A DNA stretch of 64,000 bases from an uncultured Gammaproteobacteria bacterium. GTDB taxonomy: Bacteria; Patescibacteriota; Microgenomatia; UBA10105; UBA927. Shown in pieces: positions 10,417 through 53,243 of the stretch. The stretch is taken from contig CAYGFH010000002.1 in the NCBI GenBank assembly GCA_964349125.1, positions 110,484 through 174,483 of the forward strand, given 5' to 3'. Every line of letters starts with the position of its first letter. The stretch's first letter is position 1. The position numbers and the translations under genes were made by a program. The notes beneath the pieces are model-generated. The model saw nothing but the letters and a program-made list of their open reading frames with translations. It ran no database searches and was not told the DNA's origin.

Positions 10417-10422
10417 AGTCTA

Positions 10423-10941: not shown

Positions 10942-10970
10942 ACTATGTAGTTGTATCATATGTAGGACGG

Positions 10971-17699: not shown

Positions 17700-19328
17700 T
17701 TGATATCGTATGGTATTATGAGGCGGATTGGTCGTTCTCTCATAGTGTTTTTGACCCTGGCAATCACGTTAATTGCTATAAATCTGCAGTATCGCACCCA
17801 TAAAACTGCGCTCACAATCCCCGGCACGCTCAATACGTACGCAATGGGTAACACAGAGGATTACCACCAGTACATGTATATCATCAAACGCGGGATGGAA
17901 GGGCATCTCCTCTATCACAACGCGTATTCGGAGGAAAGTATTCCGGATGTACTGCTGCAACCCTTCTACCATATCGCTGGCGCCATACTGGCACCACTTC
18001 GTTTGTCGCCGTACGATGTGTATTTTTTGCTTCATCTCGTGTCACTGAGCATCCTACTTTTTTATATATACCGTCTTATCTGCAGCGTACTCAAAACTGA
18101 AACCGGTAGGACTGTAGCGTTCTTGCTGTTTATTTCCGCCACCGGTTTCTGGTCACTTACGTCTGCATATCCCTTTACGGCCGTGAGACAGTATCTGCCG
18201 GACTATAATTTTGATTTATTTATCAAGTATCATGTCATGCAGCCACATCATGACATTGCCACGGCGCTCTATATCATTGCCATCATGGCACTCTCAGAGC
18301 GTGTGTACACGTGGAGACGCATAGTCGTGGGAGGATTCTCCGCCGCGTTACTCGGATTTATTCACCCGTACATCCAGTTATTTTTATTTTTCACTCTTAT
18401 TGTTGAACACATAGTCAGAATTTTTCTTATGAGACGGGAATATTGGAAAGAGGCATTTCGCTATGTAGCCCCAATCCTTATTGCCATACCCACAGCAGCC
18501 GTCACGTACTATACGCTCGTGCATGTACTTCAGTTTGAGATAGGTCTCAAAGGTATTGTCACCCATCTACCCAGGCAACAGACTTTTTGGTCATATACGG
18601 TGTCTCTGGGTCCACTGCTGTTCACTTCCCTATGTTGTGTGTTCCACATCAAAAAAATTGTAGAGATACCCATTCTCCGCTTTATGGCAATTTGGGCATA
18701 TCTTCCCATCATTCTGTTTTTTTTGCCAGATTATCAAATACCCATCAATACTTGGCGATTGTTTCAGACGTATCAGCATATACCAATGGCTATCCTCACC
18801 GCCTATTCACTGGTGTCTTGGGCAAAAACCTCCCGCCTGTTCGCCCTCAGTATCCCGGTGATTGCGGCAGGCTTCCTCATCTATGGGGGAGGTATGTATG
18901 CGTACGCCTATAAAGAAGCCACACAACCAGCCAATAGACTCGTCTGGACTGTAGACGTTCCGCATGTGGTCCTCTCGTTGTTTGAATACCTCAACACAGC
19001 GAGCGAGCCCGATAGTGTCGTGTTAGCTGGCGGCCAATTGTCAAACCTAATTCCTGAATTCACCCATAATCGTGTCATTATCGGACACAACGGGGATAAC
19101 CGTAATTTTCTTGCCAAACAGGCTGACATAAGCGGTTTTCTTATGGGAAATGTACCACTGTCTGAAGTCAGGAATTTTTTATCCCGATACCGTGTATCGT
19201 ACATTATCTTTGGTATAGATGCGCCATACTTCGCCAACACTCCCTATACAGCATTACCGTTTCTTAAGGAAGTGTACGTGGAGCCAAAAACAGGGTTTTC
19301 AGTGGTGCAGGTGCTCACTGACAAATGA
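17700..19328 (+). CDS. Polytopic membrane protein, putative GT-C-fold glycosyltransferase (paralog)
   Basis: About 12 TM helices. N-terminal loop motif 'EDYHQYMYIIKRGMEGH' resembles the D-Y-x2-Y-x3-I-x-QG motif of the other paralogs. C-terminal soluble domain ...VSYIIFGIDAPYF... Confidence 0.35.
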   Translation: MISYGIMRRIGRSLIVFLTLAITLIAINLQYRTHKTALTIPGTLNTYAMGNTEDYHQYMYIIKRGMEGHLLYHNAYSEESIPDVLLQPFYHIAGAILAPLRLSPYDVYFLLHLVSLSILLFYIYRLICSVLKTETGRTVAFLLFISATGFWSLTSAYPFTAVRQYLPDYNFDLFIKYHVMQPHHDIATALYIIAIMALSERVYTWRRIVVGGFSAALLGFIHPYIQLFLFFTLIVEHIVRIFLMRREYWKEAFRYVAPILIAIPTAAVTYYTLVHVLQFEIGLKGIVTHLPRQQTFWSYTVSLGPLLFTSLCCVFHIKKIVEIPILRFMAIWAYLPIILFFLPDYQIPINTWRLFQTYQHIPMAILTAYSLVSWAKTSRLFALSIPVIAAGFLIYGGGMYAYAYKEATQPANRLVWTVDVPHVVLSLFEYLNTASEPDSVVLAGGQLSNLIPEFTHNRVIIGHNGDNRNFLAKQADISGFLMGNVPLSEVRNFLSRYRVSYIIFGIDAPYFANTPYTALPFLKEVYVEPKTGFSVVQVLTDK

Positions 19329-20609
19329 CTCAATTGTCCGAACCACATACTTGAGCATTTGTTTGGTCAGTCCAGGGTGCACGCCAATCCAAAACGCATC
19401 ATTCATGAGTTTGTCTGAGCTTTTTAAATCCCCTACTTTGCGTATACGCGGATGATTCACGTACGCAGGGTGGCGGGTCAAATTTCCTCCAAAAATCGCA
19501 CGGGTCGCGATTTTTTTCTCATCCAGATAATTGACGAGATCGACTTTGGTAAACGGTGCCCCATCTCGTACAACCAGAGGGAACCCGAACCAGCTGGGAT
19601 TAGCGCCGGGCAATGCCTCCGGCAATATAAAGTATTGTTCTAATGTTTTAAAATATTGAAACAAATAGGCAAAATTATCTCGTCTGGCTTTGATAAACTT
19701 CGGTAGTTTTTTCATTTGCGCAAGCCCTATGGAAGCCTGGATATCTGTAAGCTTCAGGTTATAGCCGATTTGCGAATAGGTGTATTTGTGATCATACCCG
19801 TACGGCAACTCTCCCAATTTCCATTTGAATCGCATCCCGCAGGTGTTGTCTTTTCCCGTGTCGCACCAGCAGTCACGACCCCAATCCCGAAACTGTCGTA
19901 TTGCTTTATTTAGCCGTGAGTCGCTCGTCACTATAGCTCCTCCCTCACCCATCGTAATCTGATGAGCAGGATAGAAACTGAATGTTGCGATGTGTCCGAA
20001 TGTTCCTGCTAATCGGCCGTTATACTCCCCTCCCAATGCATCGCAGCAATCTTCAATAAACCACAGGTTATATTTGGCAACCAATGCCATGATTTCATCC
20101 ATAGGCATGAGGTTCCCCAGCGTATGGGCCATCATAATTACTTTTGTTTTGGGTGTTATCGCCTGCTCCAGATCCGCAGGATTCACATTTTTTGTGACGA
20201 TGTCATTATCCAAAAGCACCAGAGTGCAGTTGTTCTGGATCGTCGGGTTGATTGTTGTCGGGAAACCGGTTCCCACACTGATGACTTCATCTCCCGGCTG
20301 TAGAGCCCTATCACGAAAAACTTTGGATGTGAGAGCAGTGAGTGCCACTAAATTTGCGCTAGAGCCGGAATTTACCAGAGACACAAATTTCACACCAAGA
20401 AATTTTGAAAATTCTTTTTCAAATTCCAAAGCAAACCGCCCTTCAGTCCACCACCCATCTAAAACCGCCTCAATGCCGTATAAAAGCTCGCTCTCATCAA
20501 ACACTTTACCTGATACTGGCACGCTAGCTTCCCCTGCCACAAATTTCTTTTTGGCAAAGTTTTTTTTGTAGTGGGCAAGAATCTGTTTTTGCAGCGTTTT
20601 TGAAATCAT
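19299..20609 (-). CDS. ddhC: CDP-6-deoxy-D-glycero-L-threo-4-hexulose 3-dehydratase (E1; DegT-fold PMP/[2Fe-2S] enzyme)
   Basis: DegT/DnrJ fold, but the active-site Lys is replaced by His (FSFYPAHQITMGEGG versus FSFYPGKNLG in the 38202 paralog). It has a C-x-C-x7-C cluster (RDCWCDTGKDNTC). The 436-aa length matches RfbH/AscC. Confidence 0.75.
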   Translation of the reverse strand: MISKTLQKQILAHYKKNFAKKKFVAGEASVPVSGKVFDESELLYGIEAVLDGWWTEGRFALEFEKEFSKFLGVKFVSLVNSGSSANLVALTALTSKVFRDRALQPGDEVISVGTGFPTTINPTIQNNCTLVLLDNDIVTKNVNPADLEQAITPKTKVIMMAHTLGNLMPMDEIMALVAKYNLWFIEDCCDALGGEYNGRLAGTFGHIATFSFYPAHQITMGEGGAIVTSDSRLNKAIRQFRDWGRDCWCDTGKDNTCGMRFKWKLGELPYGYDHKYTYSQIGYNLKLTDIQASIGLAQMKKLPKFIKARRDNFAYLFQYFKTLEQYFILPEALPGANPSWFGFPLVVRDGAPFTKVDLVNYLDEKKIATRAIFGGNLTRHPAYVNHPRIRKVGDLKSSDKLMNDAFWIGVHPGLTKQMLKYVVRTIESFVSEHLHH

Positions 20610-20677
20610 ACCAGCATTATAAACACTTCTAATCTATCAATCTATACTTGAGCAAATACATACTATAAGATATAATC

Positions 20678-21823
20678 TTGTGCATGTCTATTTCCGAGCA
20701 TGCGGAAACACGCAGAGAACCTGCACAAGCAAAACAAATTCCAATACACATCGGTTTTTTTGAACACGATACTGGTTCTCGTGCCGATAATAGTGTGGTA
20801 TTTTCAAAATTAGAATTGGCAGCGACAGAAGTAATGCGAAATAATAATGGCACTGTTGCACTTTTATTGGAGTCTCCCGAGTTTACTGAAGAACTTGCAC
20901 ATTCCTTACATAACATACATTCTGCCGGTTTCAGCTATAAAGAATCGTTCATTCTTCAGTCGTATTCTCATTCTCTACTACGTGAACATGCCTATAAGCC
21001 AAATACCACTGATAGAATACGATGGACATATATTAACCCTCAGAAAAACCCGATAAAAAAACTGATACTGCAATACTATCTTCCCACAGCTGCGGAACAT
21101 TTTATTAGAATATCTGATCACTTAACTACAGATTGGAATCAATTACTGATATTTCTGGATAAGCTTGAATCTAAGTTCGGAAGCAGATTTACAGTGATAT
21201 TTGAATCATATTCTGAATCTAAGCTATCTAATCTGAAACGATACATGTCAGAAATGGATACATGCATGTCGAGTGGAGATATAAAAGGCGCTGCAGACGC
21301 ACTTTTCAATCAAATGTGGAGTATTCATCAGGAAACGGTAACAAGAGACCCTAAAGCGGAAAGTCAAATTGAAGAGCTTGCGCATAAAACAGATGTAGCT
21401 ATAGTTCTTTCGCTGTTCGGAGCTATACATCAAATGATAGCAGAGTCGCTTTTTTCAAAAGGCTTTGCGGTATTTCCACATGTAGTCGAAGATGGAGAGC
21501 AATACGCGAATTTGCTATTCGGAATAGTCAGGCAAATCAGGAGAGGTGAAAATCCGTCATATTTTCTTCTTAAACGGGCTGCGATTTTATCATGGTATTA
21601 CCGACATGTATTTGCTTCCTGGTCACTATTGCCGATTGATATTTCTGATTCTATAAGTCAAAAACATGCAATTGAAAGAACTCAAATACTATCATCTATA
21701 CTCTCTTCACGTGAGGATTTAGAGGAGGTGGAAAAACAGTTAAAAACGGATCCAGAGCATAATACCTTTAGCTTTTTGAATAAACTCACAAGAAGAGAAG
21801 TTGTACTTTTTGCCGAAAAGTAA
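20678..21823 (+). CDS. Hypothetical cytoplasmic protein
   Basis: 381-aa ORF with no TM segment and no recognisable motif. The likely start is the ATG two codons in (MSISEHAE). Confidence 0.35.
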   Translation: MCMSISEHAETRREPAQAKQIPIHIGFFEHDTGSRADNSVVFSKLELAATEVMRNNNGTVALLLESPEFTEELAHSLHNIHSAGFSYKESFILQSYSHSLLREHAYKPNTTDRIRWTYINPQKNPIKKLILQYYLPTAAEHFIRISDHLTTDWNQLLIFLDKLESKFGSRFTVIFESYSESKLSNLKRYMSEMDTCMSSGDIKGAADALFNQMWSIHQETVTRDPKAESQIEELAHKTDVAIVLSLFGAIHQMIAESLFSKGFAVFPHVVEDGEQYANLLFGIVRQIRRGENPSYFLLKRAAILSWYYRHVFASWSLLPIDISDSISQKHAIERTQILSSILSSREDLEEVEKQLKTDPEHNTFSFLNKLTRREVVLFAEK

Positions 21824-22020
21824 TTCGACAATCATCACTTTCAACATGTTCATGTCTCTGTCGAAAAACTCAACGTTTTTAAACACGAAATATAAACGAC
21901 AGATCGCTGACGAAGTAGCAGGAAAATTATAAGAAATATACTCTAGTTTCTACACTGAGTGGTTTATGATCGATATTACCTGTAATGATACGAATAAAAT
22001 TTCATTTCTAAATGCAATCA

Positions 22021-23208
22021 TCAGGTAAGAACCTTTTTCAATACCATGCAGACAAATTCCACATCGCGCTCGGTGATATCAAACGCACTGGGTAAATTAA
22101 ACCCATCATTTGCTACTTTGGTAGCGACAGGATTTGCAAAGCGAGCCGTGTACATCGGGAACAAACTCATGCGTGGAAACGCCTCACGGGCATGAATATT
22201 GTATGTTTTGAGCTTCGCCACCAGTGCGTTTCTCGAGATTTTTTTCGTATTGAGCATCACTGCAGGATATGCGTAATTTGAGCGCATGCCTTCCTGCTCT
22301 CTCAAGAGGGTAATTTCTTCCATATCAGAGAGTCTCTCCCAATACCATTCAAAAATCTTGCGTTTCATGGCAACCAACTCTTCTATTCGTTCCACCTGGG
22401 CAAGAGCCAAAGAAGCGGTCACATTTGCCATCTGGTACTCAAAGCCCATCGTGTCACACCAGAAGTTAGCCTTACTGTCAGTGCGCCCCATATTGCTGAG
22501 GAGATATGCCTGATCAAGCATCTTTTTGTTATTTGTGAGAAACATTCCGCCTTCACCACTTGCCGCGATTTTCGCGCCGTGGAACGATACACATCCCACA
22601 TCCCCAATGCTTCCGACCTTTTTACCCTTATAGATACTCCCCAATGAGGGCGCGGCATCCTCTATCACTTTCAGCTTATATTTTCTGGCGAGCTTCATGA
22701 TCGCATCCATGTTTGCAGGCATGCCAAAGGTGTGAACGAGCATGATCCCTTTTGTCTTTTTCGTGATGGCGTTCTCTATCGCCTTGGGGTCTATACACCA
22801 CGTGTCAGGCTCTATATCAACAAATACTGGAGTGGCTCCTGCCCATGCTATGACGTGTGCGGTCGCAGCCCAACTGAAGTCAGTCACGATGACCTCATCA
22901 CCCTTCCCAAAACCACAGACGAGACATGCCAGATGCATCGCGTGTGTTGCACAAAACTGCGCAAGGGAATATTTTGTTCCAACATATTCTGCCATCTCGT
23001 GTTCCAGTTTTTTTACGTGCTTATCAAATGTTTGGTAAAAACCGTTTTTCACACCGTCAACAACATACGTCAGTTCTTTTTTTGTAATAGATGGACCCGC
23101 GAAACTGATTTTCTTCTTACTCGGTCTTAACAAATCAGATCTTTTTGATTTGTTATAGAGCGAGTTATCCCGTGAAGCGGGGTTACTCTGTTGTTTTTTT
23201 GTTTTCAT
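22021..23208 (-). CDS. DegT/DnrJ/EryC1/StrS-family PLP-dependent sugar aminotransferase
   Basis: FGKGDEVIVTDFSW...; VSFHGAKIAASGEGG carries the Lys; 395 aa with a basic N-terminal extension. Confidence 0.75.
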   Translation of the reverse strand: MKTKKQQSNPASRDNSLYNKSKRSDLLRPSKKKISFAGPSITKKELTYVVDGVKNGFYQTFDKHVKKLEHEMAEYVGTKYSLAQFCATHAMHLACLVCGFGKGDEVIVTDFSWAATAHVIAWAGATPVFVDIEPDTWCIDPKAIENAITKKTKGIMLVHTFGMPANMDAIMKLARKYKLKVIEDAAPSLGSIYKGKKVGSIGDVGCVSFHGAKIAASGEGGMFLTNNKKMLDQAYLLSNMGRTDSKANFWCDTMGFEYQMANVTASLALAQVERIEELVAMKRKIFEWYWERLSDMEEITLLREQEGMRSNYAYPAVMLNTKKISRNALVAKLKTYNIHAREAFPRMSLFPMYTARFANPVATKVANDGFNLPSAFDITERDVEFVCMVLKKVLT

Positions 23209-23209
23209 T

Positions 23210-23854
23210 TTAATTCCCTTCTCCTGTCATATAGACATCAAATCGTTTTATACGTTTGGTATATCCGTCAGGTGCTATAGTCCACTCTCCTCCATCCGGC
23301 GTCTTTGTGTACACCAATGGGATCCGTTTTGTTTCTACAAATCCCAATCGGGTATATAGAGCAAGTGCACGGGTATTATCTGACGTAGTCTGGAGCGTAT
23401 AGGACGTAAGTCCCAGTGTTTCTCTCCCCCAGCGCATCATCAGTTGTATCGCCTCGGCCATCATGCCTTTTCTTCCGACCCGTCCTCTCACTATATTATC
23501 GATTTCGCAACAGTTGTTATCGAAATCGAACCGGTAGAGGCCGACATGTCCTCTATATGTACCATGAATATCTATCATAAACAAGAGTCGGTCAGGTTCA
23601 TTAAGCACCCTGTTTTGCAGCCATGATGCAGTGCGTTTCATAGAGACTGGAAACTGGGCCGGAAACCAGTACTCATGCTTTTTCCTCCATCTGCCCAGAA
23701 GTCTCACAATACCCGTATCGTGTGCGCATTGGGTCGTCAATAAACGCAGTATAAGAGGATTTTTAGACTCACGAGATACCAGATCCATGGAGCCAAACGG
23801 GGCTTGTTTAAGTCGTGCTATCGTGGAAAGAACCTGTGTTTTTTTTGCGTTCAT
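23210..23854 (-). CDS. GNAT-family N-acetyltransferase (WecD-like sugar N-acetyltransferase candidate)
   Basis: RGRVGRKGMMAEAIQLMMRWGRETLGLTSYTLQTTSDNTRALALYTRLGFVE is a GNAT motif A/B. It lies 1 bp from the upstream aminotransferase. Confidence 0.55.
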   Translation of the reverse strand: MNAKKTQVLSTIARLKQAPFGSMDLVSRESKNPLILRLLTTQCAHDTGIVRLLGRWRKKHEYWFPAQFPVSMKRTASWLQNRVLNEPDRLLFMIDIHGTYRGHVGLYRFDFDNNCCEIDNIVRGRVGRKGMMAEAIQLMMRWGRETLGLTSYTLQTTSDNTRALALYTRLGFVETKRIPLVYTKTPDGGEWTIAPDGYTKRIKRFDVYMTGEGN

Positions 23855-23864
23855 TCGTAACAGT

Positions 23865-25643
23865 TCAAATTTCGGTCATTCGAGCAAATTCTTCTCTGGG
23901 CAAAAATGGGAATAAATCTTCATACGGTTTGGAAACCATTCGTCCGTCAGCAGCTTTCTCTGATGATACCCGCGGAATGATAAGTTGCCATTCTGGAGAG
24001 AGCACATCTATGACCATCGGCCCCTCAAATGTCATAATGCTCTTTAGTTTTCTATTCAACTCATTCGGCGTGGATATACGAACTGCCTTGATGCCATACG
24101 CCTCAGCAATTTTTATGGAGTCTGGTATATACAATCCGGTTTTGGGACTTTCTCCAAGTAGTCTTCCTTCCATATGAGTTTTTTGCGTATGGCGGATAAG
24201 TAAATACCCGTTATTGTTAATCACAAATAGTTTTATATTCAGCTTATTTTGTTTGAGTGTTGCCAGCTCCTGCAAATTCATCTGGAGACACCCGTCTCCT
24301 GTAATCACCAACGTCTGACCGTTTGGACGTGCCATAGCCGCACCTATGGATGCGGGCCAATAGCCCATGGTCGATATACCGCCGGTGGTGATAAACCGTT
24401 GCCCTTTCTTAATTTTCCATGTCTGACACACGACATGGAATGGAGAGCTCGTATCCACAACGATGGTGTCATGTTTTGAAGCGGCCTCTGATAACTTGTC
24501 AGTAAACAGATAGGAATTTACTTTTTTTTCTTTCGCGTACTGCGGGAGATTCATCGGATATGCTTTTTTCCACACACCGATCCGTGATACCCAGTGAGAG
24601 TACGAATGAAGTGACACTCCTGCTATCCCGCTTGAGAGTGCTGACAAAAACTGTTTCGCATCCGATTGAATTGTCAGTGACGGCGTAATTCCCGGTTTAT
24701 CCAATTCCTTCTGATCCACGTCCACGATTACCTTGAATGCCCGCCTACCCCAATCAGAAGCATCGTATCCAACTACCCCAGGGTCAAGTCTTGCTCCGAC
24801 TGCGATAATCAGATCAGCCATCTGGACGGCAAAGTTTGCCGGCCTGTCACCGTACAAACCCGGCCTGCCGACAAACTGATTGGTATAGGAGTCGACCAGA
24901 TCAATGCCGAGCCGTGTGGTAGCAACGGGCATGCGCGTTTTTTTTAGAAACTGTTCCATTTCCCGCACTGCGCCTGAGAGGAATATCCCATGACCCGCTA
25001 TAAACAGTGGACGCTTGGCATTACAAAGAAGCGTCACGATACGCTCGATATCACTTGCCTGTGTCATGCACGATTCTCTGCACTCTGACTCAGAAAATTG
25101 CTTCATGCCTTTTTTGGGCATTTGCATTCTCTGGATATCCAGTGGTACATCAATCCAAACAGGACCCGGTCTTCCATGAGTCGCAACATGCCATGCTTTT
25201 TCCAGGTGATACTCTACACTCAGAGGGTCATCGATCGACACATAGTATTTTGTCACACTGCTGGCCAAGGGTTTCATGTGGATGCCCTGAAGTCCGTATT
25301 GCCGTATCCCTGTTTTTTCCATGTACGCGGCATTACCGCTTGATGATTGGCCCGCTATGACGATCATTGGAGCGCTGTCCACATAGGCTCCGACTACACC
25401 GGTAAGTGCATTCACACCCGCTGGGCCTGCTGTCACCATGGCAACACCCAAGTTGCCCGAAATTCTTCCATATCCTTCCGCAGCCATAGCCGCTGCCTGC
25501 TCATGATGATGGAAAATCGGACGTATTTTCTTAGACTGATAGATTGCGTCGTTTAGAAACATCGCCTGCCCGCCGGGAACCATAAACACGGTATCCACCC
25601 GTTTTTTTTCTATGTACGACACGATGTACTCTGCAATATTCAT
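23865..25643 (-). CDS. Thiamine-diphosphate-dependent enzyme, acetolactate-synthase/YerE-like
   Basis: N-terminal Pyr domain (VFMVPGGQAMFLNDAIYQ...). C-terminal ThDP motif GDGCLQMNLQELATL...NNNGY. 592 aa. Confidence 0.75.
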   Translation of the reverse strand: MNIAEYIVSYIEKKRVDTVFMVPGGQAMFLNDAIYQSKKIRPIFHHHEQAAAMAAEGYGRISGNLGVAMVTAGPAGVNALTGVVGAYVDSAPMIVIAGQSSSGNAAYMEKTGIRQYGLQGIHMKPLASSVTKYYVSIDDPLSVEYHLEKAWHVATHGRPGPVWIDVPLDIQRMQMPKKGMKQFSESECRESCMTQASDIERIVTLLCNAKRPLFIAGHGIFLSGAVREMEQFLKKTRMPVATTRLGIDLVDSYTNQFVGRPGLYGDRPANFAVQMADLIIAVGARLDPGVVGYDASDWGRRAFKVIVDVDQKELDKPGITPSLTIQSDAKQFLSALSSGIAGVSLHSYSHWVSRIGVWKKAYPMNLPQYAKEKKVNSYLFTDKLSEAASKHDTIVVDTSSPFHVVCQTWKIKKGQRFITTGGISTMGYWPASIGAAMARPNGQTLVITGDGCLQMNLQELATLKQNKLNIKLFVINNNGYLLIRHTQKTHMEGRLLGESPKTGLYIPDSIKIAEAYGIKAVRISTPNELNRKLKSIMTFEGPMVIDVLSPEWQLIIPRVSSEKAADGRMVSKPYEDLFPFLPREEFARMTEI

Positions 25644-25648
25644 ATGGA

Positions 25649-26692
25649 TTATGTCAGTGACTCCAGATGGAAATCATTTGGCTTATTTCGTTTTTGACTT
25701 CCCAGCATTTTTGCTATCTCGATAATCATATCTTCCTGCCCTGCAACTATCTGTCTGCGGCCTAACTCGGATAGTATATCACGCACATCAACATCGTATG
25801 CTTTCGCGGCTTTCACCACGTGCGGAGCAAAGCCTGAAAATACTCCCGCAAGCCCGCTTGATAACGTCACTGAGTTTATTTCCGGTAGGTGCGGCACCCA
25901 TGTTGACACAATATCTCCCCCATCCATGAGCGGGTACAATTCCACACCCGTGTCCAGTTTCATTCTGGCAAACAGCGCCACAACAACTTCAAGGGGCACA
26001 TTTCCGGCTCCAGCGCCCAGACCGCGTGCTGTGCCATCGATAATCGTGGCGCCGTGTTCTACGGCAACCAACGAGTTTGCCACGGCCAATCCCAGATTAT
26101 TATGTGCATGAAACCCCACGTCTATCGATAAACCGGAGACGAGCTTTTCCACTTTCTCTTTCACATCATCCGTCAGATACGCGCCTGCGCTGTCCATGAG
26201 AATCACGCCTTCCGCCCCATAAGACTCCATCAGTTTTGCCTGTTCCAGAAGTCCGGATGCATCAAGCATATGGGACATCATAAGCACACCATAGGTGGTT
26301 AATTTTTTGTTTTTTGCGTACACGATATGCTGTTTTGTCACGGTCGCCTCGCTGCAGTGACACGCGACTATGAGTGTGCTGATTCCGGATTCGATTGCGG
26401 GCGCGAGATCCGCATGTATGGTGCCAAATCCGGGAATTAAAAATCCGGCAAGTGACGTGTTGTGAAGTACGGATTTCGCCGACGCAAACATATCACTGTC
26501 CGAGAGTAGCGCCCGTCCCAAATGGACAGACGATGCGCCCAACCCGTTTCCGTGCCCTACCACAAGTACCGGTACATGCGCTTCTTCCGCCTTTGTTGAG
26601 TATGACGAAATCATGTCAGCGGAAAGTTGGTGCGCTATGGCATGGGAACCATCCCGAAGCGTGGAATCAATGATGGTAATTTTTCTGTTCAT
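25649..26692 (-). CDS. 4-hydroxy-2-oxovalerate aldolase-like (DRE-TIM metallolyase, DmpG family)
   Basis: IIDSTLRDGSHA, HAHNNLGLAVANSLVAVEHGA and DGTARGLGAGAGN motifs. Confidence 0.7.
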   Translation of the reverse strand: MNRKITIIDSTLRDGSHAIAHQLSADMISSYSTKAEEAHVPVLVVGHGNGLGASSVHLGRALLSDSDMFASAKSVLHNTSLAGFLIPGFGTIHADLAPAIESGISTLIVACHCSEATVTKQHIVYAKNKKLTTYGVLMMSHMLDASGLLEQAKLMESYGAEGVILMDSAGAYLTDDVKEKVEKLVSGLSIDVGFHAHNNLGLAVANSLVAVEHGATIIDGTARGLGAGAGNVPLEVVVALFARMKLDTGVELYPLMDGGDIVSTWVPHLPEINSVTLSSGLAGVFSGFAPHVVKAAKAYDVDVRDILSELGRRQIVAGQEDMIIEIAKMLGSQKRNKPNDFHLESLT

Positions 26693-26705
26693 ATATACTA
26701 TTTTA

Positions 26706-27590
26706 TTATTTTATTTTTTTGGTAGCATACCCTTCAGCAACGGCGATGGCCGCGCAGTTAATGATATCCAGATTACCGGCATAAATAGGCAGAAAATCGC
26801 CCAAGCCTACCACCTGAGACATGATGACAATCCGTCCATGATCATAGAACGGAGCATGAATCAGTGAGTAGCCCGGAGTATATTCACGGACTTTGGAAAC
26901 CACCGCAGATACAGCCTTCTCAATAGCCTTCATGTCGGGAGACTCATACGGTATATAGATTGTATTATGCATCATAATTGGCGGATCTGCGGAATTGAGA
27001 ATAATAATCGTTTTTGCTTTTTTCACACCGGTAAGGGAAACAATGGCATCGCTGGTTGTTTGGGTATACTCATCGATGTTCTCCCTGGTGCCGATACCTG
27101 CTGATCGGGAGGAAATACTCGAAACAATCTCTACGTAGGGTATATTGGGTAATACTGTTGATATGGCATGAAGTATCGGAATATTTGCCTGACCACCGCA
27201 GGAAATCATACTGACATTGGCATTCTTAACGCCCTCCGATTTATTCACTACGGGGACACATAATGCCCCGATTTTAGATGGCGTCATATCGATGACAAAT
27301 TTTTGCAGTTTTTTAAGTATCGGTGCGTGAACAAGGTGGTGTTTGGCGCTGGTTGCATCAAACACAATGTCAATATGTTTCTCCTCACGCACGATTGCAG
27401 CAATGGAATCAGCGGATACGGGAATCCCCATACGTTTTGCCCTCTGAATTCCTTCAGACGCTGGATTTTGTCCTGCAAACAATACACAGGATAAATGGGG
27501 AGATCGCATCACTTTGGAGAGCAAATCACTCCCGATATTTCCGGTGCCAAGGATGGCAACTCTCGCTTTTGTTGATCGTGATTTTTTCAT
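26706..27590 (-). CDS. Acetaldehyde dehydrogenase (acetylating), DmpF-like
   Basis: VAILGTGNIGSDL Rossmann motif. Catalytic-Cys region ISCGGQANIPILHAIS. About 294 aa. Adjacent to the DmpG-like gene. Confidence 0.7.
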   Translation of the reverse strand: MKKSRSTKARVAILGTGNIGSDLLSKVMRSPHLSCVLFAGQNPASEGIQRAKRMGIPVSADSIAAIVREEKHIDIVFDATSAKHHLVHAPILKKLQKFVIDMTPSKIGALCVPVVNKSEGVKNANVSMISCGGQANIPILHAISTVLPNIPYVEIVSSISSRSAGIGTRENIDEYTQTTSDAIVSLTGVKKAKTIIILNSADPPIMMHNTIYIPYESPDMKAIEKAVSAVVSKVREYTPGYSLIHAPFYDHGRIVIMSQVVGLGDFLPIYAGNLDIINCAAIAVAEGYATKKIK

Positions 27591-27625
27591 GATACCGTAC
27601 GGTGTTGACCGGCACTGGATAAGGG

Positions 27626-28570
27626 TCAGTTGGATACATTAACCGTCTTACTCACAATGTATTTTGGTCGCCGTTTTACTTCCAAAAATATCTTCGCCAA
27701 ATATTCTGCAATAACACTTAATGATAATAATTGTACACCACCCAAAAAAAGAATCAGAACCACCACAGTCGGAATTCCTTTTGCTGCACTACCGTATGTA
27801 AGAAATGCGATAATATCGTAAATAAGAAACAAGAATGAAAAAATCGTTACACCAAACGCAATCGTAGATATCCACTCAAGCGGTTTAAAAGAGAAGTTCA
27901 CAAGTATAGTTTTTGCCCACCAGAACCCCGTCAAAATACTTTCCGATGACCTGCCATGTGCCCGTGCATCACGTACATAGTCTATACCAACCTGTTTAAA
28001 TCCGACATACGCCCGAAGACAGCGTAAATAATAATCGTATTCGTCAAGCGCCAACAACTCTCGTATGACCTTACGGTCGACAAGAGAATACTCCCCTGCA
28101 TTCATCGGAATGTGGATGTACGCCAGTTTATTGAGCACATAATAAAATCCTTTGTAGAGTGTATTCCACATCCACCCGTACCCTTTTCGCGATTTCCTCA
28201 CACCATACACGACATCAAATCCTTCTTCCCATTTTTTCACAAATGCCCCGATGAGTTCAGGCGGATCCTGGATATCTCCATGCATAAATACAGCGGCCAT
28301 CCCTTTTGCATATTCCATTCCCGCGATAAATGACGGCTGCGGGGAACCGAAATTCCGGCTCATATAGATGATTTTTACCTGTTTATCTTTTCTTGCAAGT
28401 TTGGTGTACAGCTTGTCTGAGCGATCCAGCGATGCATTATCCACATACAGAATTTCGTAGGTATATCCCGGAAGTTTTTTAAATACAGAAACGATCCGCT
28501 CGTACATTTCGAGGATATTTTCGACCTCATTATAGTTGGTAACGATGATAGAAATTATTTTTTTCTTCAT
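27626..28570 (-). CDS. GT2 polyprenol-phosphate sugar synthase-like glycosyltransferase (DPM1/GtrB/ArnC-like) with C-terminal TM helices
   Basis: IIVTNYNEVENI...YVDNASLDRSD...HGDIQDP; two C-terminal TM helices. Confidence 0.7.
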   Translation of the reverse strand: MKKKIISIIVTNYNEVENILEMYERIVSVFKKLPGYTYEILYVDNASLDRSDKLYTKLARKDKQVKIIYMSRNFGSPQPSFIAGMEYAKGMAAVFMHGDIQDPPELIGAFVKKWEEGFDVVYGVRKSRKGYGWMWNTLYKGFYYVLNKLAYIHIPMNAGEYSLVDRKVIRELLALDEYDYYLRCLRAYVGFKQVGIDYVRDARAHGRSSESILTGFWWAKTILVNFSFKPLEWISTIAFGVTIFSFLFLIYDIIAFLTYGSAAKGIPTVVVLILFLGGVQLLSLSVIAEYLAKIFLEVKRRPKYIVSKTVNVSN

Positions 28571-28576
28571 GCTATT

Positions 28577-28604
28577 CGATTCGCGGTTAACGGTTAACGG
28601 TTAA
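28577..28604. repeat. Heptamer array CGATTCG (CGGTTAA)x3 spanning the epimerase stop codon
   Basis: Read directly. Its reverse complement encodes ...ALTVNR-TAA. Confidence 0.85.
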
Positions 28605-29555
28605 CGCTTTTTTATACCATGCGTATGTTTCAAGTAATCCCATTTCCAGTGAAAATTTCGGCCTCCAGCCGAGTTTTGCTATTTTACTCCAATTGAGGTG
28701 TTGACTTGGGATTTCATTTTTCTGAGTATTTTTGATTGAGTAGGGTATCGTTGCACCCAATATCCGCTGGGCAGATTCAATTAATTTCAGTACAGAAAGA
28801 CTCGTATCAGACGCGATATTAAACGCTTCGCCGCGTGCCGCATCAAAATGCTCAAGCAAATAGAGGTATGCATCCACCACATCCCCGACATACACATAAT
28901 CCCGTACAAACGTCCCGTCGGACCGCAAAGCCAATTCTTCTCCTGTAATTGCCGAGTTCACTATGCTTGGTATGATTCTGGACATATTTAGGTCACCGGG
29001 ACCGTAAATATTACCAAATCGCACGGTTGATACAGGAGCACCATAGGTCCTCACATATGCGTTTGTTATGATATCAGCTGCTGATTTACTTGCTTCATAC
29101 GGGTGGTCACCGGCCAGAGGGTGATCCTCTGAGTAAGTTTTGTCACTTTTGCCATAGGCCTTGTCTGATGATGTCACGATGATCCGCTGCACTGTAGCAC
29201 TCTGCCAGGCGGCATCAAGTACATGTGTTGTCCCGATCACATTGGTGGTTATTGTTTCAACAGGGTTTGCATAGGCCGTATCCACAATCGGCTGCGCCGC
29301 CAGGTGGTAGATAGTTTCAATTTCGTATTTGGATACAATATCAGTAATTCTCCGTCTGTCTGTAATATCTCCCTGCGCAAGCACTGTTTTTTTATCTAAA
29401 CCGCGGGTCATAAAATATGAGGCATGATCAATGCTCCGAAATGGGATAACCACACGTGCACCTCTTTGCACCAGTGCCTCAACGAGATGACTACCGACGA
29501 ACCCGGTTCCGCCGGTAACCAATATGTGTGAATGACTGCCGATTTGATAGCTCAT
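28587..29555 (-). CDS. NAD-dependent sugar-nucleotide 4,6-dehydratase/epimerase (SDR); candidate CDP-glucose 4,6-dehydratase
   Basis: ILVTGGTGFVGSHLVEAL and YEASKSAAD (YxxxK). Its last residues ...ALTVNR* and its stop codon are encoded by the CGGTTAA heptamer array. Confidence 0.65.
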   Translation of the reverse strand: MSYQIGSHSHILVTGGTGFVGSHLVEALVQRGARVVIPFRSIDHASYFMTRGLDKKTVLAQGDITDRRRITDIVSKYEIETIYHLAAQPIVDTAYANPVETITTNVIGTTHVLDAAWQSATVQRIIVTSSDKAYGKSDKTYSEDHPLAGDHPYEASKSAADIITNAYVRTYGAPVSTVRFGNIYGPGDLNMSRIIPSIVNSAITGEELALRSDGTFVRDYVYVGDVVDAYLYLLEHFDAARGEAFNIASDTSLSVLKLIESAQRILGATIPYSIKNTQKNEIPSQHLNWSKIAKLGWRPKFSLEMGLLETYAWYKKALTVNR

Positions 29556-29674
29556 GGTGTGTGAAAACGGGGTGGGAGGATTCCCGCTATACGGTTGCTG
29601 CGGTCTGCATCAACTCAGACTGACTATAGCACAAAAACAGAGAACTACAACAGGGTTCGTGGCGCGGGCACCTG

Positions 29675-30457
29675 TTACTTCCAGACTTTCCACTGAGGAT
29701 CTGTGTTCCAATACGTGTTCAGATTCTCCACATCCGCATAGGTATCCATCGCATGCCAGAATCCTTCATGAACATGGAGAGACAGTTCTCGTTTCATGAC
29801 CAGTCTATGCAGGGCTTTATGCTCAAATTCACCCACGCGCAGGTACTCAAAAAATTTTTTGTTAAATACCATAAACCCGCCATTCACCCATTCTTTGAGT
29901 GATGGTTTCTCCACAAATTCGGTTACTGTATGTTCTCCATTTATTCTTACCTGTCCATATTTACTGCGTGGGTGTACACCCGTTATTGTTCCGATTGTGC
30001 GCTGTTTTTTATGGAAGGCGACCAGTTTTTTGATATCTATAGTGCCGACTCCATCGCCGTAGGTCACCATAAAATCTTTATCTTCTTTCGGTATGTAGTC
30101 CTTAATTCTCAAGATCCGCTCACCGGGAAGTGTTTCCGCCCCAGTGTCCACAAATGTGATGTTGAAATCATCCACAGTGTTCTCCCCTGCCGAGGCTTTA
30201 TGGATTTTTGTTTTTCCATTTTTTGTGGAGAGTGAAAAGTCGTGTGTGAAATATTGTTGATTTAAAAAATACTCTTTTATGTAGTCACCCTTATATCCGA
30301 GTGCAATGATAAAATCATTAAACCCGTAGTGGGCATAGATTTTCATGATATGCCACAATATCGGCTTATTACCGATAGTCACCATGGGTTTTGGCTTAAA
30401 TTCCGTTTCCTCTTTCAGACGATATCCTATACCACCACACAAAATCACTGTTTTCAT
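29675..30457 (-). CDS. rfbF: Glucose-1-phosphate cytidylyltransferase
   Basis: I moved the start to the internal Met: MKTVILCGGIGYRLKEETEFKPKPMVTIGNKPILWHIMKIYAHYGFNDFIIALGYKGDYIKEYF. This matches DdhA/RfbF and gives ~260 aa. Confidence 0.8.
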   Translation of the reverse strand: MKTVILCGGIGYRLKEETEFKPKPMVTIGNKPILWHIMKIYAHYGFNDFIIALGYKGDYIKEYFLNQQYFTHDFSLSTKNGKTKIHKASAGENTVDDFNITFVDTGAETLPGERILRIKDYIPKEDKDFMVTYGDGVGTIDIKKLVAFHKKQRTIGTITGVHPRSKYGQVRINGEHTVTEFVEKPSLKEWVNGGFMVFNKKFFEYLRVGEFEHKALHRLVMKRELSLHVHEGFWHAMDTYADVENLNTYWNTDPQWKVWK

Positions 30458-30524: not shown

Positions 30525-31034
30525 TTATGGAAAAATCCGCCAGTACCATTCAAGTACCAGTTCTCTTATGCGAAAATATGACTGCGTTTTGCCGAGTCTG
30601 TACAGTGTTCCGTTGTATTGGATATCTCCTGAATCAAGCAACCGCTCAATTCGTCTTTGTACAATCTGTCGAACACCATACGTTTTTAACAGTTCATTTT
30701 TTGATACACCGTTCGTCCTTCCGCTGATTTCAGAGAGAAACCACACGGTTAGAGAGGCTTCGAACACACTAAACACAGTAAACAAAAATAACACCACACA
30801 TGCTGTATATATACCAATCACGAGTACTACCCCCGTCGTGTACTGCATGAGAGAGAGTCCAAGTATATCCGCTTTGTGAATCCATATACCGCTTGCAAGA
30901 AACAGCCCGAAGAAAAATACGATTAGCATTGCCCGTATCGCCAGTTTTTGTGAGACAATGCGAAACAATATTGGCAAACAGCATATTGCCAGAAGTACCG
31001 TTACTAGGCTTGACACTATAATCCACTCATCCAT
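30525..31034 (-). CDS. Small membrane protein (3-4 TM) with C-terminal winged-helix-like domain
   Basis: Hydrophobic N-terminal ~100 aa. C-terminus ...LLKTYGVRQIVQRRIERLLDSGDIQYNGTLYRLGKTQ. Paralogous to 31037..31522 and 40318..40839. Confidence 0.35.
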   Translation of the reverse strand: MDEWIIVSSLVTVLLAICCLPILFRIVSQKLAIRAMLIVFFFGLFLASGIWIHKADILGLSLMQYTTGVVLVIGIYTACVVLFLFTVFSVFEASLTVWFLSEISGRTNGVSKNELLKTYGVRQIVQRRIERLLDSGDIQYNGTLYRLGKTQSYFRIRELVLEWYWRIFP

Positions 31035-31036: not shown

Positions 31037-31522
31037 TTACCCCCGTTTTTTCCTATAAAATAGCGTTTCATAAGCTGCTATCATGCGAGCAAATTGCATG
31101 CCTTTCTTTGTACTGACAACTCCCTGTGATGTTATCGCAACCAGCCCGGACGAGCGCAAATCATCAATACGTTTCCATACGAGCTGTTTTTCACTAAACA
31201 GCGATTCTATCGCGGATTTAGTCATACCGGGACGGGATGCAAGGGCGTGAAGGATCATAGACGAGGGCGTCTCACCTCCCAAAATCACCCCGACATATAA
31301 AAACGAAAAAATAGCCGACAGCAAAAGATACAGGAGGACCGAAGAGAATATAAAGTCACTCTGTATATAGAGAAGTAGAAACACTAATGGAACTACACCC
31401 AACAGGTACACACAGACACTGCCGAGTGTGATGGCATTGTTCTTTCGACCAGACAAATGAATACCACGGTGAACCCAAATAAAAAAACCTAACACGGATA
31501 GTATACTCACCAGACTAAGCAT
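31037..31522 (-). CDS. Small membrane protein with C-terminal winged-helix-like domain (paralog)
   Basis: 4 TM helices, then ...MTKSAIESLFSEKQLVWKRIDDLRSSGLVAITSQGVVSTKKG. Confidence 0.35.
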   Translation of the reverse strand: MLSLVSILSVLGFFIWVHRGIHLSGRKNNAITLGSVCVYLLGVVPLVFLLLYIQSDFIFSSVLLYLLLSAIFSFLYVGVILGGETPSSMILHALASRPGMTKSAIESLFSEKQLVWKRIDDLRSSGLVAITSQGVVSTKKGMQFARMIAAYETLFYRKKRG

Positions 31523-31525: not shown

Positions 31526-33076
31526 TTATTTTCTGCGCCAGAGAGCAGTCCCCCACCCCTCCACTTTTTCATAGTGCTCATTGATATACGGAAGATCATC
31601 AGTGAGTTCCCAAAACCTGCCGCTGTCGCCCTGATAGATATATGCCACCTTCTTTTCCTCCAGTACTTCACGAAGCGGTCTAGGAGGTCTGGAAAGAAAC
31701 CGTACGAAGGTACCAAACGGCAGACAGCAAATATCGTACGGGTCCGTCCTGTATATAAACCTGCCGTCGAGATCCAACACCTGCTCATTCTCACCAACGA
31801 GCGACCGCAGTTGTTCCGTTTGGACAAGCTGTACTTTGTTTGATATCTGCATTTTTGGGGCATTCACTACTGCTGTCTGCCTCGCAAATAGAAGCGCCAA
31901 CGCGATAAGCAGTACGGGAGACAAAACAGAAGTACGACGAAAAACTAACGAAACGAAATCTGCACAGTACATCGCGATAAAGACCGCAATGGGAATCAGA
32001 TACTGACTGTGCTTCATGGGAAAAAACATCACATACAATACCACTGAGACAATAAATACTCCTGCGATCAGGAGCTCTGATAACACCCGCTTCCCTTTCC
32101 CGTCAGCTCTAATATAGGGGGTGAGCAGACTCATCACACCCACGCAAATGCCGATCGCCCAAATCGTATGGTTCAAGAGAAGCGCATTGGTAACCCCCCA
32201 TCCACCATAAAACGATGCGTTAGGGAAAAAGAACAGGTGTGGCTCCATTATATATATGCGCCCGATGGTATTTGCCTCAAACGGCATGCTCGTCAGTGAA
32301 TAGAGCACTTTAGATATATCCCCCAGTGACAGCAGCCAGAATGCGAACAACAGTCCCGTCATACCAAATCCGTAGAGAAAATATGCATGGGCTCCTGTGC
32401 CCGGCAGGCGCTGAATCCTGCGTGTAGAAAGTGTGCGGAGTATCCACTGATACATCCCCACATCCAACAGGTATATGGCAAAACCTACCACGACAAACGG
32501 GAGTGATTTTACAAGAATTATCATAGATGCAGCGTAGCTAATCGCCGAGAAAAACCAATAGTACCTGCTGCGCCCATGGAGCGGATTCTCCATAGCTATG
32601 ATCTGTAGATACATTCCCAAAAGCCCGAACACTGTGGAGACATTATCGGGACGCACTTCCATAAATTTGTCAAATGGCATCGGTAAAAACGCGAGGATAC
32701 ACATCGGAATCACAAAAAACCGCTTTGACCTCACGGTTCTATACAGAAGTCCCGTCAAGGCAACCATGACAGCAAAAACAACAAATGCAGCAACTCGTGT
32801 GGCGATAAATAAGGATGTGCTCTTGCCGAAGAGCCAAAACAACGGAGTTAAAAGCCAATAAAAACCGGGGGTAAAAAAGGTGAAAAAATCTATATATGGC
32901 GTCTGACCCCGGGCAAAATTTGCGGCCCAGTGCAGATGGGTGAATTCGTCCACATCAAAAAAGCGAGTAATTCCGACTGTGTAATGCCAGTACAGCAGAT
33001 ATCCCAAAAGAACACTCGCTATTACATACTCGACGAGAATAATCAGTTTGGGGATGGTGAAATATGATGATTTCAT
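31526..33076 (-). CDS. Polytopic membrane protein, putative GT-C-fold glycosyltransferase (paralog)
   Basis: About 12 TM helices. C-terminal domain ...KKVAYIYQGDSGRFW... It overlaps the upstream SDR gene by 4 bp. Confidence 0.35.
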   Translation of the reverse strand: MKSSYFTIPKLIILVEYVIASVLLGYLLYWHYTVGITRFFDVDEFTHLHWAANFARGQTPYIDFFTFFTPGFYWLLTPLFWLFGKSTSLFIATRVAAFVVFAVMVALTGLLYRTVRSKRFFVIPMCILAFLPMPFDKFMEVRPDNVSTVFGLLGMYLQIIAMENPLHGRSRYYWFFSAISYAASMIILVKSLPFVVVGFAIYLLDVGMYQWILRTLSTRRIQRLPGTGAHAYFLYGFGMTGLLFAFWLLSLGDISKVLYSLTSMPFEANTIGRIYIMEPHLFFFPNASFYGGWGVTNALLLNHTIWAIGICVGVMSLLTPYIRADGKGKRVLSELLIAGVFIVSVVLYVMFFPMKHSQYLIPIAVFIAMYCADFVSLVFRRTSVLSPVLLIALALLFARQTAVVNAPKMQISNKVQLVQTEQLRSLVGENEQVLDLDGRFIYRTDPYDICCLPFGTFVRFLSRPPRPLREVLEEKKVAYIYQGDSGRFWELTDDLPYINEHYEKVEGWGTALWRRK

Positions 33077-33981: not shown

Positions 33982-34030
33982 ATGCATCGATACTATTTCA
34001 TGATTCAACAATACCCTTTACGCGTTACGA

Positions 34031-37725: not shown

Positions 37726-37735
37726 TAGTACCGCT

Positions 37736-38197: not shown

Positions 38198-38201
38198 TCG
38201 C

Positions 38202-39320: not shown

Positions 39321-39327
39321 CGACACT

Positions 39328-53231: not shown

Positions 53232-53243
53232 AAAGAAGAATAT

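Follow-up and report, generated by a model that had tools for sequence, protein, structure and literature searches.

Two described pathways use a thiamine diphosphate (ThDP)-dependent enzyme to attach a carbon branch at C-4 of a 3,6-dideoxyhexose, and both bear on the locus reported here, which lies in a 64,000-nucleotide stretch of contig CAYGFH010000002.1 (the whole of this stretch is called the window). In the yersiniose A pathway of Yersinia pseudotuberculosis (ddhA-D, yerE and yerF) the acceptor, cytidine diphosphate (CDP)-4-keto-3,6-dideoxy-D-glucose, arises through DdhA, DdhB and the dehydrase E1. YerE then adds a C2 branch from pyruvate (PMC9306805), accompanied by the E3 reductase (DdhD) and the reductase YerF. 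The erwiniose cluster of Pectobacterium atrosepticum SCRI1043 (Steitz et al. 2022; PMC9306805) combines genes for CDP-4-keto-3,6-dideoxyglucose with those for ErwE (ThDP enzyme), ErwF (reductase), ErwI (BphI/DmpG-like) and ErwJ (BphJ/DmpF-like). In the published scheme ErwJ converts acetyl-CoA to acetaldehyde, and ErwI joins the latter with pyruvate to form 4-hydroxy-2-oxopentanoate. After decarboxylation ErwE transfers the remaining C4 unit to the keto sugar, and the ketone left on the branch is reduced by ErwF. For ErwE the R enantiomer of this 2-oxo acid served as donor and pyruvate did not (PMC9306805). A further relative, JanthE from Janthinobacterium sp. HH01, is a characterised 'YerE-like' enzyme that adds acyl groups from 2-oxo acids to ketones and accepts pyruvate among other donors (PMC12188165).

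The window shares with the erwiniose cluster genes for a ThDP carboligase, an aldolase, an acylating dehydrogenase, a cytidylyltransferase, a putative 4,6-dehydratase and an E1. It differs in having an N-acetyltransferase of the GNAT family and a DegT-family aminotransferase where an ErwF-type ketoreductase would stand, a family 2 glycosyltransferase (GT2) inside the module, a GT-C-fold enzyme linked to E1, and no E3. The host is also different, being a probable Patescibacterium and not a Gram-negative organism with lipopolysaccharide (LPS). Exact copies of the stretch are present on public metagenome contigs, and close homologues carry the names 'Patescibacteria group', Curtissbacteria and Parcubacteria. 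The genes of the module and its immediate partner are as follows.

29675..30457, minus strand: glucose-1-phosphate cytidylyltransferase-like protein (RfbF/DdhA), 260 residues, for CDP-hexose formation; first gene of the transcription unit.

28587..29555, minus strand: putative short-type nucleoside diphosphate (NDP)-hexose 4,6-dehydratase (DdhB role), a short-chain dehydrogenase/reductase (SDR) of 322 residues, assigned from motifs and synteny.

27626..28570, minus strand: GtrB/ArnC/PgfS-like GT2 (polyprenyl-phosphate sugar synthase), 314 residues, assigned from PDB and NCBIfam matches.

26706..27590, minus strand: acylating acetaldehyde dehydrogenase (DmpF/BphJ/ErwJ-like), 294 residues, assigned from profiles and PDB matches.

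25649..26692, minus strand: class II pyruvate aldolase (DmpG/BphI/ErwI-like), 347 residues, assigned from profiles, PDB matches and residues.

23865..25643, minus strand: ThDP-dependent carboligase of the JanthE/YerE-like class (ErwE role), 592 residues, assigned from domains, PDB match and tree.

23210..23854, minus strand: GNAT N-acetyltransferase, 214 residues (Acetyltransf_3, Acetyltransf_1).

22021..23208, minus strand: DegT-family pyridoxal phosphate (PLP) aminotransferase, 395 residues (DegT 342 bits), with the Schiff-base Lys213 kept (SFHGAK).

19299..20609, minus strand: E1 (CDP-6-deoxy-L-threo-D-glycero-4-hexulose 3-dehydrase; RfbH/DdhC/AscC), 436 residues, assigned from profile, structure match and motifs.

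17718..19328, plus strand: GT-C-fold membrane glycosyltransferase, 536 residues, convergent with E1 and overlapping its end; candidate user of a lipid-linked sugar.

A preliminary description of the interval 19299-30457, made from the sequence alone, had proposed a branched 3,6-dideoxyhexose pathway. This is the right general reading, and all the genes it named were recovered where it had placed them, with strong family matches. The list passed over the GT2 (27626-28570), GNAT (23210-23854) and aminotransferase (22021-23208) genes, which are the features that set the locus apart. The product was called yersiniose-like and should rather be called erwiniose-like, because the aldolase-dehydrogenase pair would make 4-hydroxy-2-oxopentanoate, a donor for a C4 branch, and ErwE rejected pyruvate. 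Two statements about the pair are contradicted by the erwiniose cluster: that it belongs to no described dideoxyhexose pathway, since ErwE, ErwI and ErwJ occur together there, and that it may supply a two-carbon donor, since the erwiniose scheme builds a C5 2-oxo acid that yields a C4 branch (PMC9306805).

We propose, with moderate confidence, that the product of the locus is an acyl-branched 3,6-dideoxyhexose, made by an erwiniose-type pathway in which the tailoring step is altered and delivered on a lipid carrier. What is observed are the families, the motifs and a conserved order of genes; the substrates and the order of steps given here are predictions drawn from them. The cytidylyltransferase would form CDP-glucose, which the short SDR would convert to CDP-4-keto-6-deoxyglucose. 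E1, using pyridoxamine phosphate and a [2Fe-2S] cluster, would strip the 3-hydroxyl group to give CDP-4-keto-3,6-dideoxyglucose, the electrons coming from a reductase whose gene lies outside the window. The branch donor would be made in parallel: the DmpF-like enzyme would reduce acetyl-CoA to acetaldehyde, and the DmpG-like aldolase would combine this with pyruvate to give 4-hydroxy-2-oxopentanoate, probably the 4R form. The ThDP enzyme would decarboxylate this acid and add the resulting 3-hydroxybutanoyl unit to the C-4 ketone of the sugar, creating a tertiary alcohol and a branch ketone. The DegT aminotransferase would aminate that ketone, the sole remaining carbonyl, and the GNAT protein would acetylate the amine to produce CDP-3,6-dideoxy-4-C-(1-acetamido-3-hydroxybutyl)-hexose. 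Finally the GtrB-like GT2 would load the sugar onto polyprenyl phosphate, for transfer by the GT-C enzyme to a cell-surface acceptor.

The comparative evidence comes from a scan of the ThDP family with one genome per species. The best 80 loci, at 38-70% identity, are spread over many bacterial phyla and some archaea, and neither Pectobacterium nor Yersinia is among these 80 closest loci. Further comparisons were made over 93 related loci, which are cited by number (L003 and so on) where they need to be told apart. In most loci with enough flanking sequence the ThDP gene lies near genes for a cytidylyltransferase, a dehydratase-type SDR and an E1 homologue, and the gene order is conserved across many phyla. 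Locus L092 is a single co-directional unit of 10 genes in the order cytidylyltransferase, dehydratase, an unknown 313-residue gene, GT2, DmpF, DmpG, ThDP enzyme, GNAT, aminotransferase and E1; it has no second SDR.

In the window, eight close-set minus-strand genes run from 30457 down to 22021 in the order cytidylyltransferase, SDR, GT2, DmpF, DmpG, ThDP enzyme, GNAT and aminotransferase, with intergenic gaps of 119, 16, 35, 13, 5, 10 and 1 nt. The gap between DmpF and DmpG is thus 13 nt and that between DmpG and the ThDP gene 5 nt, and the aminotransferase gene begins 1 nt past the GNAT stop codon. An opposite-strand open reading frame (ORF, 20678-21823) and then E1 (20609-19299) follow. The preliminary description had put the ThDP enzyme and the DmpG/DmpF-like pair in the same minus-strand operon; the eight genes are indeed packed together, but E1 is set off from them by this intervening opposite-strand ORF and is a neighbour rather than strictly part of the same operon. 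The ORF encodes 381 residues on the plus strand, has no Pfam or NCBIfam match and occupies a low-GC (0.39) stretch between aminotransferase and E1. These two genes are adjacent in L092, where E1 directly follows the aminotransferase, and since the module is uninterrupted there the 381-residue ORF is best regarded as a local insertion. The same junction holds different, unrelated genes in L085 and in L086, where one encodes a YafQ-type toxin, and it seems to gather lineage-specific insertions. The top promoter-like site in the window, at 30495-30468 on the minus strand, lies just upstream of the cytidylyltransferase gene, in a promoter and terminator scan whose total is at chance level, with counts not above those of shuffled sequence. 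Rfam and tRNA scans of the window found nothing.

The first two enzymes are of the expected families. The preliminary description had noted a glucose-1-phosphate cytidylyltransferase and a dehydratase-type SDR nearby, and both are present. The cytidylyltransferase matches TIGR02623 over its full length at 268.6 bits, slightly below the cut-off of 300.25; it is also called as 260 residues on the public contigs, and homologues (37-79% identity) accompany the ThDP gene in most of the related loci. For the SDR the best NCBIfam models, neither of which reaches its cut-off, are CDP-glucose 4,6-dehydratase (194 bits) and dTDP-glucose 4,6-dehydratase (191 bits). The motifs GxTGFxG, S-D-K (at 130) and YxxxK (at 153) are present, and in related loci the dehydratase gene invariably comes directly after that for the cytidylyltransferase. 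We infer the 4,6-dehydratase role from these motifs and from synteny.

The assignment of E1 is solid. The protein scores 641 bits against the RfbH equivalog model NF011936 (cut-off 423), 302 bits against PF01041 (DegT/AAT) and 518 bits against the Yersinia E1 structure 3bcx. His216, in the sequence PAHQIT, aligns with PAHHIT of wild-type 3bcx and with PAKHIT of the H220K mutant (3bb8). The cysteines follow the pattern C189-X57-C247-X-C249-X7-C257, corresponding to C-X57-C-X1-C-X7-C, which we take from the E1 literature to be the iron-sulphur motif. The diagnosis of E1 in the preliminary description is borne out by these features. That account had also named a lysine-bearing, still active aminotransferase without the iron-sulphur motif as a finding that would overturn its reading; the protein is not such an aminotransferase, because His216 aligns with the E1 histidine and the cysteine motif is present. 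The related loci contain 48 E1 homologues with both the histidine and CxCx7C. In its score above the equivalog cut-off, in having histidine for the PLP lysine and in its full cysteine motif the protein is like AscC, DdhC and RfbH; it differs from them in lacking a cognate E3 within 64 kb.

A six-frame motif scan of the 64-kb window found no ORF with plant-type ferredoxin plus ferredoxin-NADP reductase (FNR) motifs, as expected for an E3 (AscD/DdhD), and a tblastn search of the window with an AscD query sequence gave no match at E<=10; the preliminary description had likewise seen no E3 here. By motif scan a full E3 occurs in none of the 93 related loci; in four (L010, L021, L048 and L072) E1 is followed by a short FNR-like ORF. 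SpnQ, an E1 homologue in forosamine biosynthesis, relies on general ferredoxin or flavodoxin reductases, and by that analogy a housekeeping electron donor is plausible for the window E1.

The ThDP enzyme comprises the domains PF02776, PF00205 and PF02775, with the catalytic Glu48 in HHEQ and GDG at 449-451 followed by NN. It falls below the cut-off of every acetohydroxyacid synthase (AHAS) model (best 382 against 538 bits), and no gene for an AHAS small subunit is adjacent. In the PDB the best solved match is JanthE (8rph, 352 bits over the full length), compared with no more than 249 bits for AHAS structures and 215 bits for 5ahk, which we take to be PpYerE, a homologue of YpYerE. The reciprocal search with Escherichia coli IlvI gave 435-465 bits for AHAS, 255 for 5ahk and 211 for JanthE. 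From these two sets of scores the term 'YerE-like', used in the preliminary description, spans at least two lineages; the term holds as far as the sugar-branching class is concerned, but the window enzyme belongs with JanthE and is not close to YerE proper. In a neighbour-joining tree with a single outgroup and without support values, a long branch lies between E. coli IlvI and the whole family, JanthE included. The window enzyme, 29% identical to IlvI, belongs to a subclade in which the DmpF and DmpG genes directly precede that for the ThDP enzyme. It thus does not group with IlvI or AHAS by cut-offs, structure matches or tree; such grouping was the outcome that the preliminary description had said would overturn its reading. 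Judged from its sequence, it is no bona fide AHAS/IlvB but a putative member of the sugar-branching (YerE-type) class, with carboligation onto a ketone acceptor as its predicted activity. JanthE itself, 34% identical in the trimmed alignment and placed in the same family relative to IlvI, differs in having CDG as the ThDP-binding motif in place of GDG and in branching outside the DmpFG-linked subclade.

The DmpF-like protein scores above cut-off with TIGR03215 (370 bits, cut-off 282) and NF006157 (380 bits, cut-off 166) and matches 7z3s (273 bits) and 1nvm_B (226 bits) in the PDB; its catalytic-cysteine motif SCGGQA aligns with tCGGQA. The DmpG-like protein scores 358 bits with TIGR03217 (cut-off 286) and 269 bits with 1nvm_A, and keeps Arg17, Asp18, His21, His200 and His202 (DmpG numbering) together with the DmpG communication domain. 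In scoring above the equivalog cut-offs and in retaining catalytic residues and communication domain, the two resemble the catabolic DmpG-DmpF and BphI-BphJ pairs. The direction proposed here is, by contrast, biosynthetic, from acetyl-CoA through acetaldehyde to the aldol product. Among the 15 most similar loci with enough flanking sequence (at least 43% identity), 14 have both genes immediately ahead of the ThDP gene. The fifteenth, L016 (also 43%), lacks them, and the pair is found in none of the more distant loci.

Two residues of the aldolase are of interest for stereochemistry. The window enzyme has phenylalanine at the positions of both Leu88 and Tyr291 of DmpG. Among the 14 other ThDP-linked aldolases position 291 is phenylalanine in 13 (leucine in L015) and position 88 is phenylalanine in 11 (tyrosine in L009 and L013, histidine in L010). 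These positions correspond to Leu87 and Tyr290 of BphI, the one-residue offset being deduced from Arg16/His20/Tyr290 of BphI against Arg17/His21/Tyr291 of DmpG. BphI is strictly 4S-specific; the Y290F mutant loses this control and the L87W/Y290F and L87N/Y290F double mutants become 4R-specific (PMC3962088). From those mutant data the natural Phe/Phe pair is predicted to confer relaxed or 4R selectivity, a difference from the 4S catabolic enzymes. Such selectivity would fit the R enantiomer consumed by ErwE, the residues of the aldolase being compatible with production of (R)-4-hydroxy-2-oxopentanoate.

What takes the place of the branch ketoreductase? In the sister loci L003/L004, L008 and L087 an SDR of about 285-295 residues follows or lies near the ThDP gene, with 41-49% mutual identity. 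The window and its closest relatives (L005, L085, L086, L092 and L093) have no orthologue of that SDR, and GNAT and aminotransferase genes occupy the position; the absence is judged against the SDRs of L003, L008 and L087. The GNAT gene directly follows the ThDP gene in all five of these relatives. In many close aminotransferase homologues (57-79% identity) a GNAT domain is fused to the aminotransferase, giving proteins of 570-617 residues, and so common a fusion speaks for consecutive action of the two enzymes. Of the aminotransferase homologues, eleven were matched to contigs of ThDP homologues; two of these matches were confirmed directly. The pair or fusion also stands beside ThDP and E1 genes where the aldolase is a different one (HpcH/HpaI with Ldh_2, in L094 and on the P0133 contig) and is found in L030, L089 and L091 as well. 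If one operon makes one product, the aminotransferase would act on the C-1' ketone of the branch, because C-4 would by then be a tertiary alcohol and no other carbonyl would remain.

A related observation concerns the reductase-type sisters L003/L004, L008, L087 and L038. These carry a DegT-family gene of 400-415 residues, 33-38% identical to E1 and without CxCx7C, whose product may be an iron-sulphur-independent (ColD-like) 3-dehydratase or an aminotransferase.

Several points weigh against the pathway as proposed. The reductase partner for an iron-sulphur E1 was not found within the 64 kb of the window. The ThDP enzyme is nearer to AHAS (249 bits) than to 5ahk (215 bits), its separation from IlvI was drawn with one outgroup and no support values, and its link to ErwE comes through gene content and through JanthE rather than through direct sequence comparison. 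That a GtrB-like GT2 would accept a CDP-sugar is assumed. The nearest solved structures to the aminotransferase are 7b0m (251 bits) and perosamine synthases (about 230 bits), so that it is most like enzymes that aminate C-4 of the ring; a literature search on 7b0m and 7b0d, the nearest structures, gave nothing relevant. Moreover, a GNAT and aminotransferase pair 61% identical to that of the window occurs in L090 with no ThDP gene within 9 kb. On these last two grounds the regiochemistry of amination is uncertain. Lastly, reduction of the branch ketone could still fall to an RmlD-like SDR (33073-34011) that is conserved in L085.

This RmlD-like SDR, on the minus strand, matches the rmlD model at 124 bits, below cut-off. 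It was considered as an equivalent of ErwF and set aside, since it is not an orthologue of the ThDP-linked SDRs (25% identity over 171 residues, half its length). Its gene overlaps by 4 nt that of a 516-residue polytopic membrane protein (31526-33076, minus strand) for which no family match was found. The pair is conserved in L085, the only locus with an orthologue of the SDR (41% and 58% identity, respectively), and could provide a further modification or transfer step.

The alternative that best survives these points is a plain erwiniose-type pathway together with a second sugar. Here a non-adjacent SDR, such as the RmlD-like protein, would reduce the branch ketone, and the aminotransferase and GNAT protein would divert part of the CDP-4-keto-3,6-dideoxyhexose (or CDP-4-keto-6-deoxyhexose) to a 4-acetamido sugar. 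The similarity of the aminotransferase to the C-4-specific perosamine synthases, the independent pair in L090 and the conservation of the RmlD-like SDR between the window and L085 (41% identity) are what such a scheme would lead one to expect. We nevertheless consider it unlikely. The RmlD-like protein is no orthologue of the SDRs that accompany the ThDP gene in the sister loci, and the units in L092, L093 and L091 have no spare SDR. The GNAT and aminotransferase genes stand in the reductase's own position and recur with ThDP and E1 genes in clusters that use other aldolases. Two enzymes competing for a single intermediate within a tight operon would also be less economical and call for more assumptions.

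Could the ThDP enzyme instead add a C2 acetyl unit from pyruvate, as in yersiniose, with DmpG and DmpF merely balancing the pools of pyruvate, acetaldehyde and acetyl-CoA? YerE uses pyruvate, and so, among other donors, does JanthE, the closest solved relative (PMC9306805, PMC12188165). YerE, however, has no aldolase-dehydrogenase pair beside it, whereas in the present family the pair is upstream in 14 of 15 loci at 43% identity or more and in none more distant. The enzyme known to accompany such a pair, ErwE, rejected pyruvate (PMC9306805), and the substitutions in the aldolase point to a specific (4R) aldol product and not to housekeeping cleavage. A yersiniose-type branch is therefore improbable, even though the acceptor sugar, made through DdhA, DdhB and E1, and the ThDP-dependent attachment at C-4 would be common to both pathways. 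The window further differs from the yersiniose A genes in lacking counterparts of the E3 and YerF reductases that accompany YerE.

A third scheme, which we considered and rejected as very improbable, makes the aldol product an N-acyl donor. The ThDP enzyme would only decarboxylate it to 3-hydroxybutanal, DmpF would convert this to 3-hydroxybutyryl-CoA, and the GNAT protein would acylate a 4-amino-3,4,6-trideoxyhexose made by the aminotransferase. Such a scheme is chemically closed and leaves no gene unused, and N-(3-hydroxybutanoyl) amino sugars are common in bacterial glycans. The sister loci speak against it: they keep DmpF, DmpG and the ThDP enzyme with the putative DegT-family 3-dehydratase, but L003/L004 and L008 have neither aminotransferase nor GNAT and L087 has only a class I/II aminotransferase, so that under this scheme there would be nothing to acylate. 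In addition, the ThDP family is tied to E1 across phyla, and its characterised member is a carboligase. The last possibility, a chance neighbourhood of an AHAS for branched-chain amino acids and a catabolic meta-cleavage DmpFG pair, draws on the acetolactate synthase names of the top NCBIfam matches and is scarcely credible, being already contradicted by scores below cut-off for all AHAS models, the missing adjacent small subunit, 29% identity to IlvI across a long branch and a gene order conserved over many phyla.

Turning to delivery in the proposed pathway, the GT2 matches GtrB sll0501 (5ekp) at 210 bits over residues 6-308, ArnC at 92-101 bits over residues 4-312 and dolichyl-phosphate mannose synthase at 53 bits; with the NCBIfam model PgfS it scores 224 bits, below cut-off. 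It is embedded in the module in L003, L005, L085 and L092. The GT-C-fold protein (17718-19328) has no Pfam or NCBIfam match and only 14 detectable homologues. Its AlphaFold2 model has a pLDDT of 88.3 and a pTM of 0.89, and all 26 Foldseek matches at E<=0.001 are GT-C enzymes (DPY19, AftA, STT3/PglB/AglB, AftD and ArnT), with TM-scores of 0.51-0.63 normalised to the query. The convergent pairing of its gene with E1 is kept in L085 and L086. From a GtrB/ArnC-like GT2 together with a GT-C-fold protein we infer a lipid-linked monosaccharide route like those of the Arn and Gtr systems, by which the sugar probably reaches the cell surface on a lipid carrier. Two small membrane proteins are conserved with the module.

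30525..31034, minus strand: small membrane protein, 169 residues, with homologues in L085, L005 and L093.

31037..31522, minus strand: small membrane protein, 161 residues, paired with the preceding one, with homologues in the same three loci.

In L093 both are encoded within the module, the 169-residue protein inside the operon between dehydratase and DmpF. Each has about three N-terminal membrane helices and a C-terminal helix-hairpin-helix part, and the C-terminal parts are weakly alike. Neither could be assigned to a family; the sole Pfam match of the 169-residue protein is a weak one to DUF6512, and its single-sequence AlphaFold2 model is poor (pLDDT 64). The locus thus resembles GtrB/ArnC plus ArnT systems in encoding a GT2 and a GT-C-fold membrane enzyme with sugar-nucleotide genes. 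It differs from them in that the donor would be a CDP-sugar, in having two small membrane proteins and no recognisable flippase, and in that the GT-C enzyme belongs to a tiny family with no Pfam model.

Taken as a whole, these elements suggest a picture that we put forward tentatively, at somewhat less than even confidence that all of it holds. Patescibacteria, despite their tiny genomes, would spend about 10 genes on a sugar undescribed in any organism, a 3,6-dideoxyhexose whose C-4 tertiary alcohol bears a 1-acetamido-3-hydroxybutyl group. The DegT and GNAT enzymes, often fused, would act on an exocyclic ketone; the aldolase would be a natural 4R-selective DmpG with its Phe/Phe pair; E1 would work with no dedicated E3; and a GtrB-like enzyme would pass the CDP-sugar to polyprenyl phosphate, from which a GT-C family that lacks a Pfam model would carry it to the cell surface.

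The core chemistry, ThDP-dependent coupling of an aldolase-made 2-oxo acid to CDP-4-keto-3,6-dideoxyglucose, is already published. An in silico survey of more than 200 YerE-like clusters by Krug et al. (2024) is cited in a later review, and part of the present findings may be catalogued there. New here are the amination and acetylation of the branch, the aldolase with its Phe/Phe pair, the route through a lipid carrier and the presence of such a pathway in Patescibacteria, each of them a prediction from sequence. If correct they would extend acyl-branched sugars from the LPS and lipooligosaccharides of Proteobacteria and mycobacteria to bacteria of the candidate phyla radiation, whose surface glycans are essentially unknown. 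The recurrent GNAT and aminotransferase module, often fused, would turn the branch ketone into an acetamido group and so define a set of branched amino sugars predictable from sequence. For biocatalysis, ThDP enzymes that form tertiary alcohols are of interest, as is a natural Phe/Phe DmpG-type aldolase that can be compared with the engineered 4R substitutions.

Elsewhere in the family, ThDP enzymes are found with other partners. A DJ-1/PfpI gene lies directly downstream in L049, L029 and on the P0133 contig, L094 has an HpcH/HpaI aldolase and Ldh_2, and L064 (Chromobacterium) has a 495-residue NeuB-like protein. An apparent module of ThDP enzyme, small acetyltransferase and aminotransferase in L049 and L029 was discarded, the small gene being the DJ-1/PfpI gene and not a GNAT. 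The variety of partner genes suggests that the family uses many different branch donors.

The window as a whole is a large surface-glycosylation island. At 36718-40317 on the plus strand a GFO/IDH/MocA oxidoreductase, a hexapeptide acetyltransferase, a DegT aminotransferase and an SDR epimerase/dehydratase form a second amino-sugar module, which resembles WbpB/WbpD/WbpE-type genes for diacetamido sugars. Large polytopic membrane proteins, mostly with no family match, are encoded at 13841-15478, 34031-35701, 42853-44475 (weak PMT_2), 44518-46350, 46695-48488 and 53211-55751 (weak YfhO), interleaved with GT2 and methyltransferase genes. An ORF of 2643 residues at 56007-63938 on the minus strand has no Pfam match. 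On the same strand, at 9910-11633, three adjacent small genes encode proteins with the type IV pilin N-terminal methylation motif.

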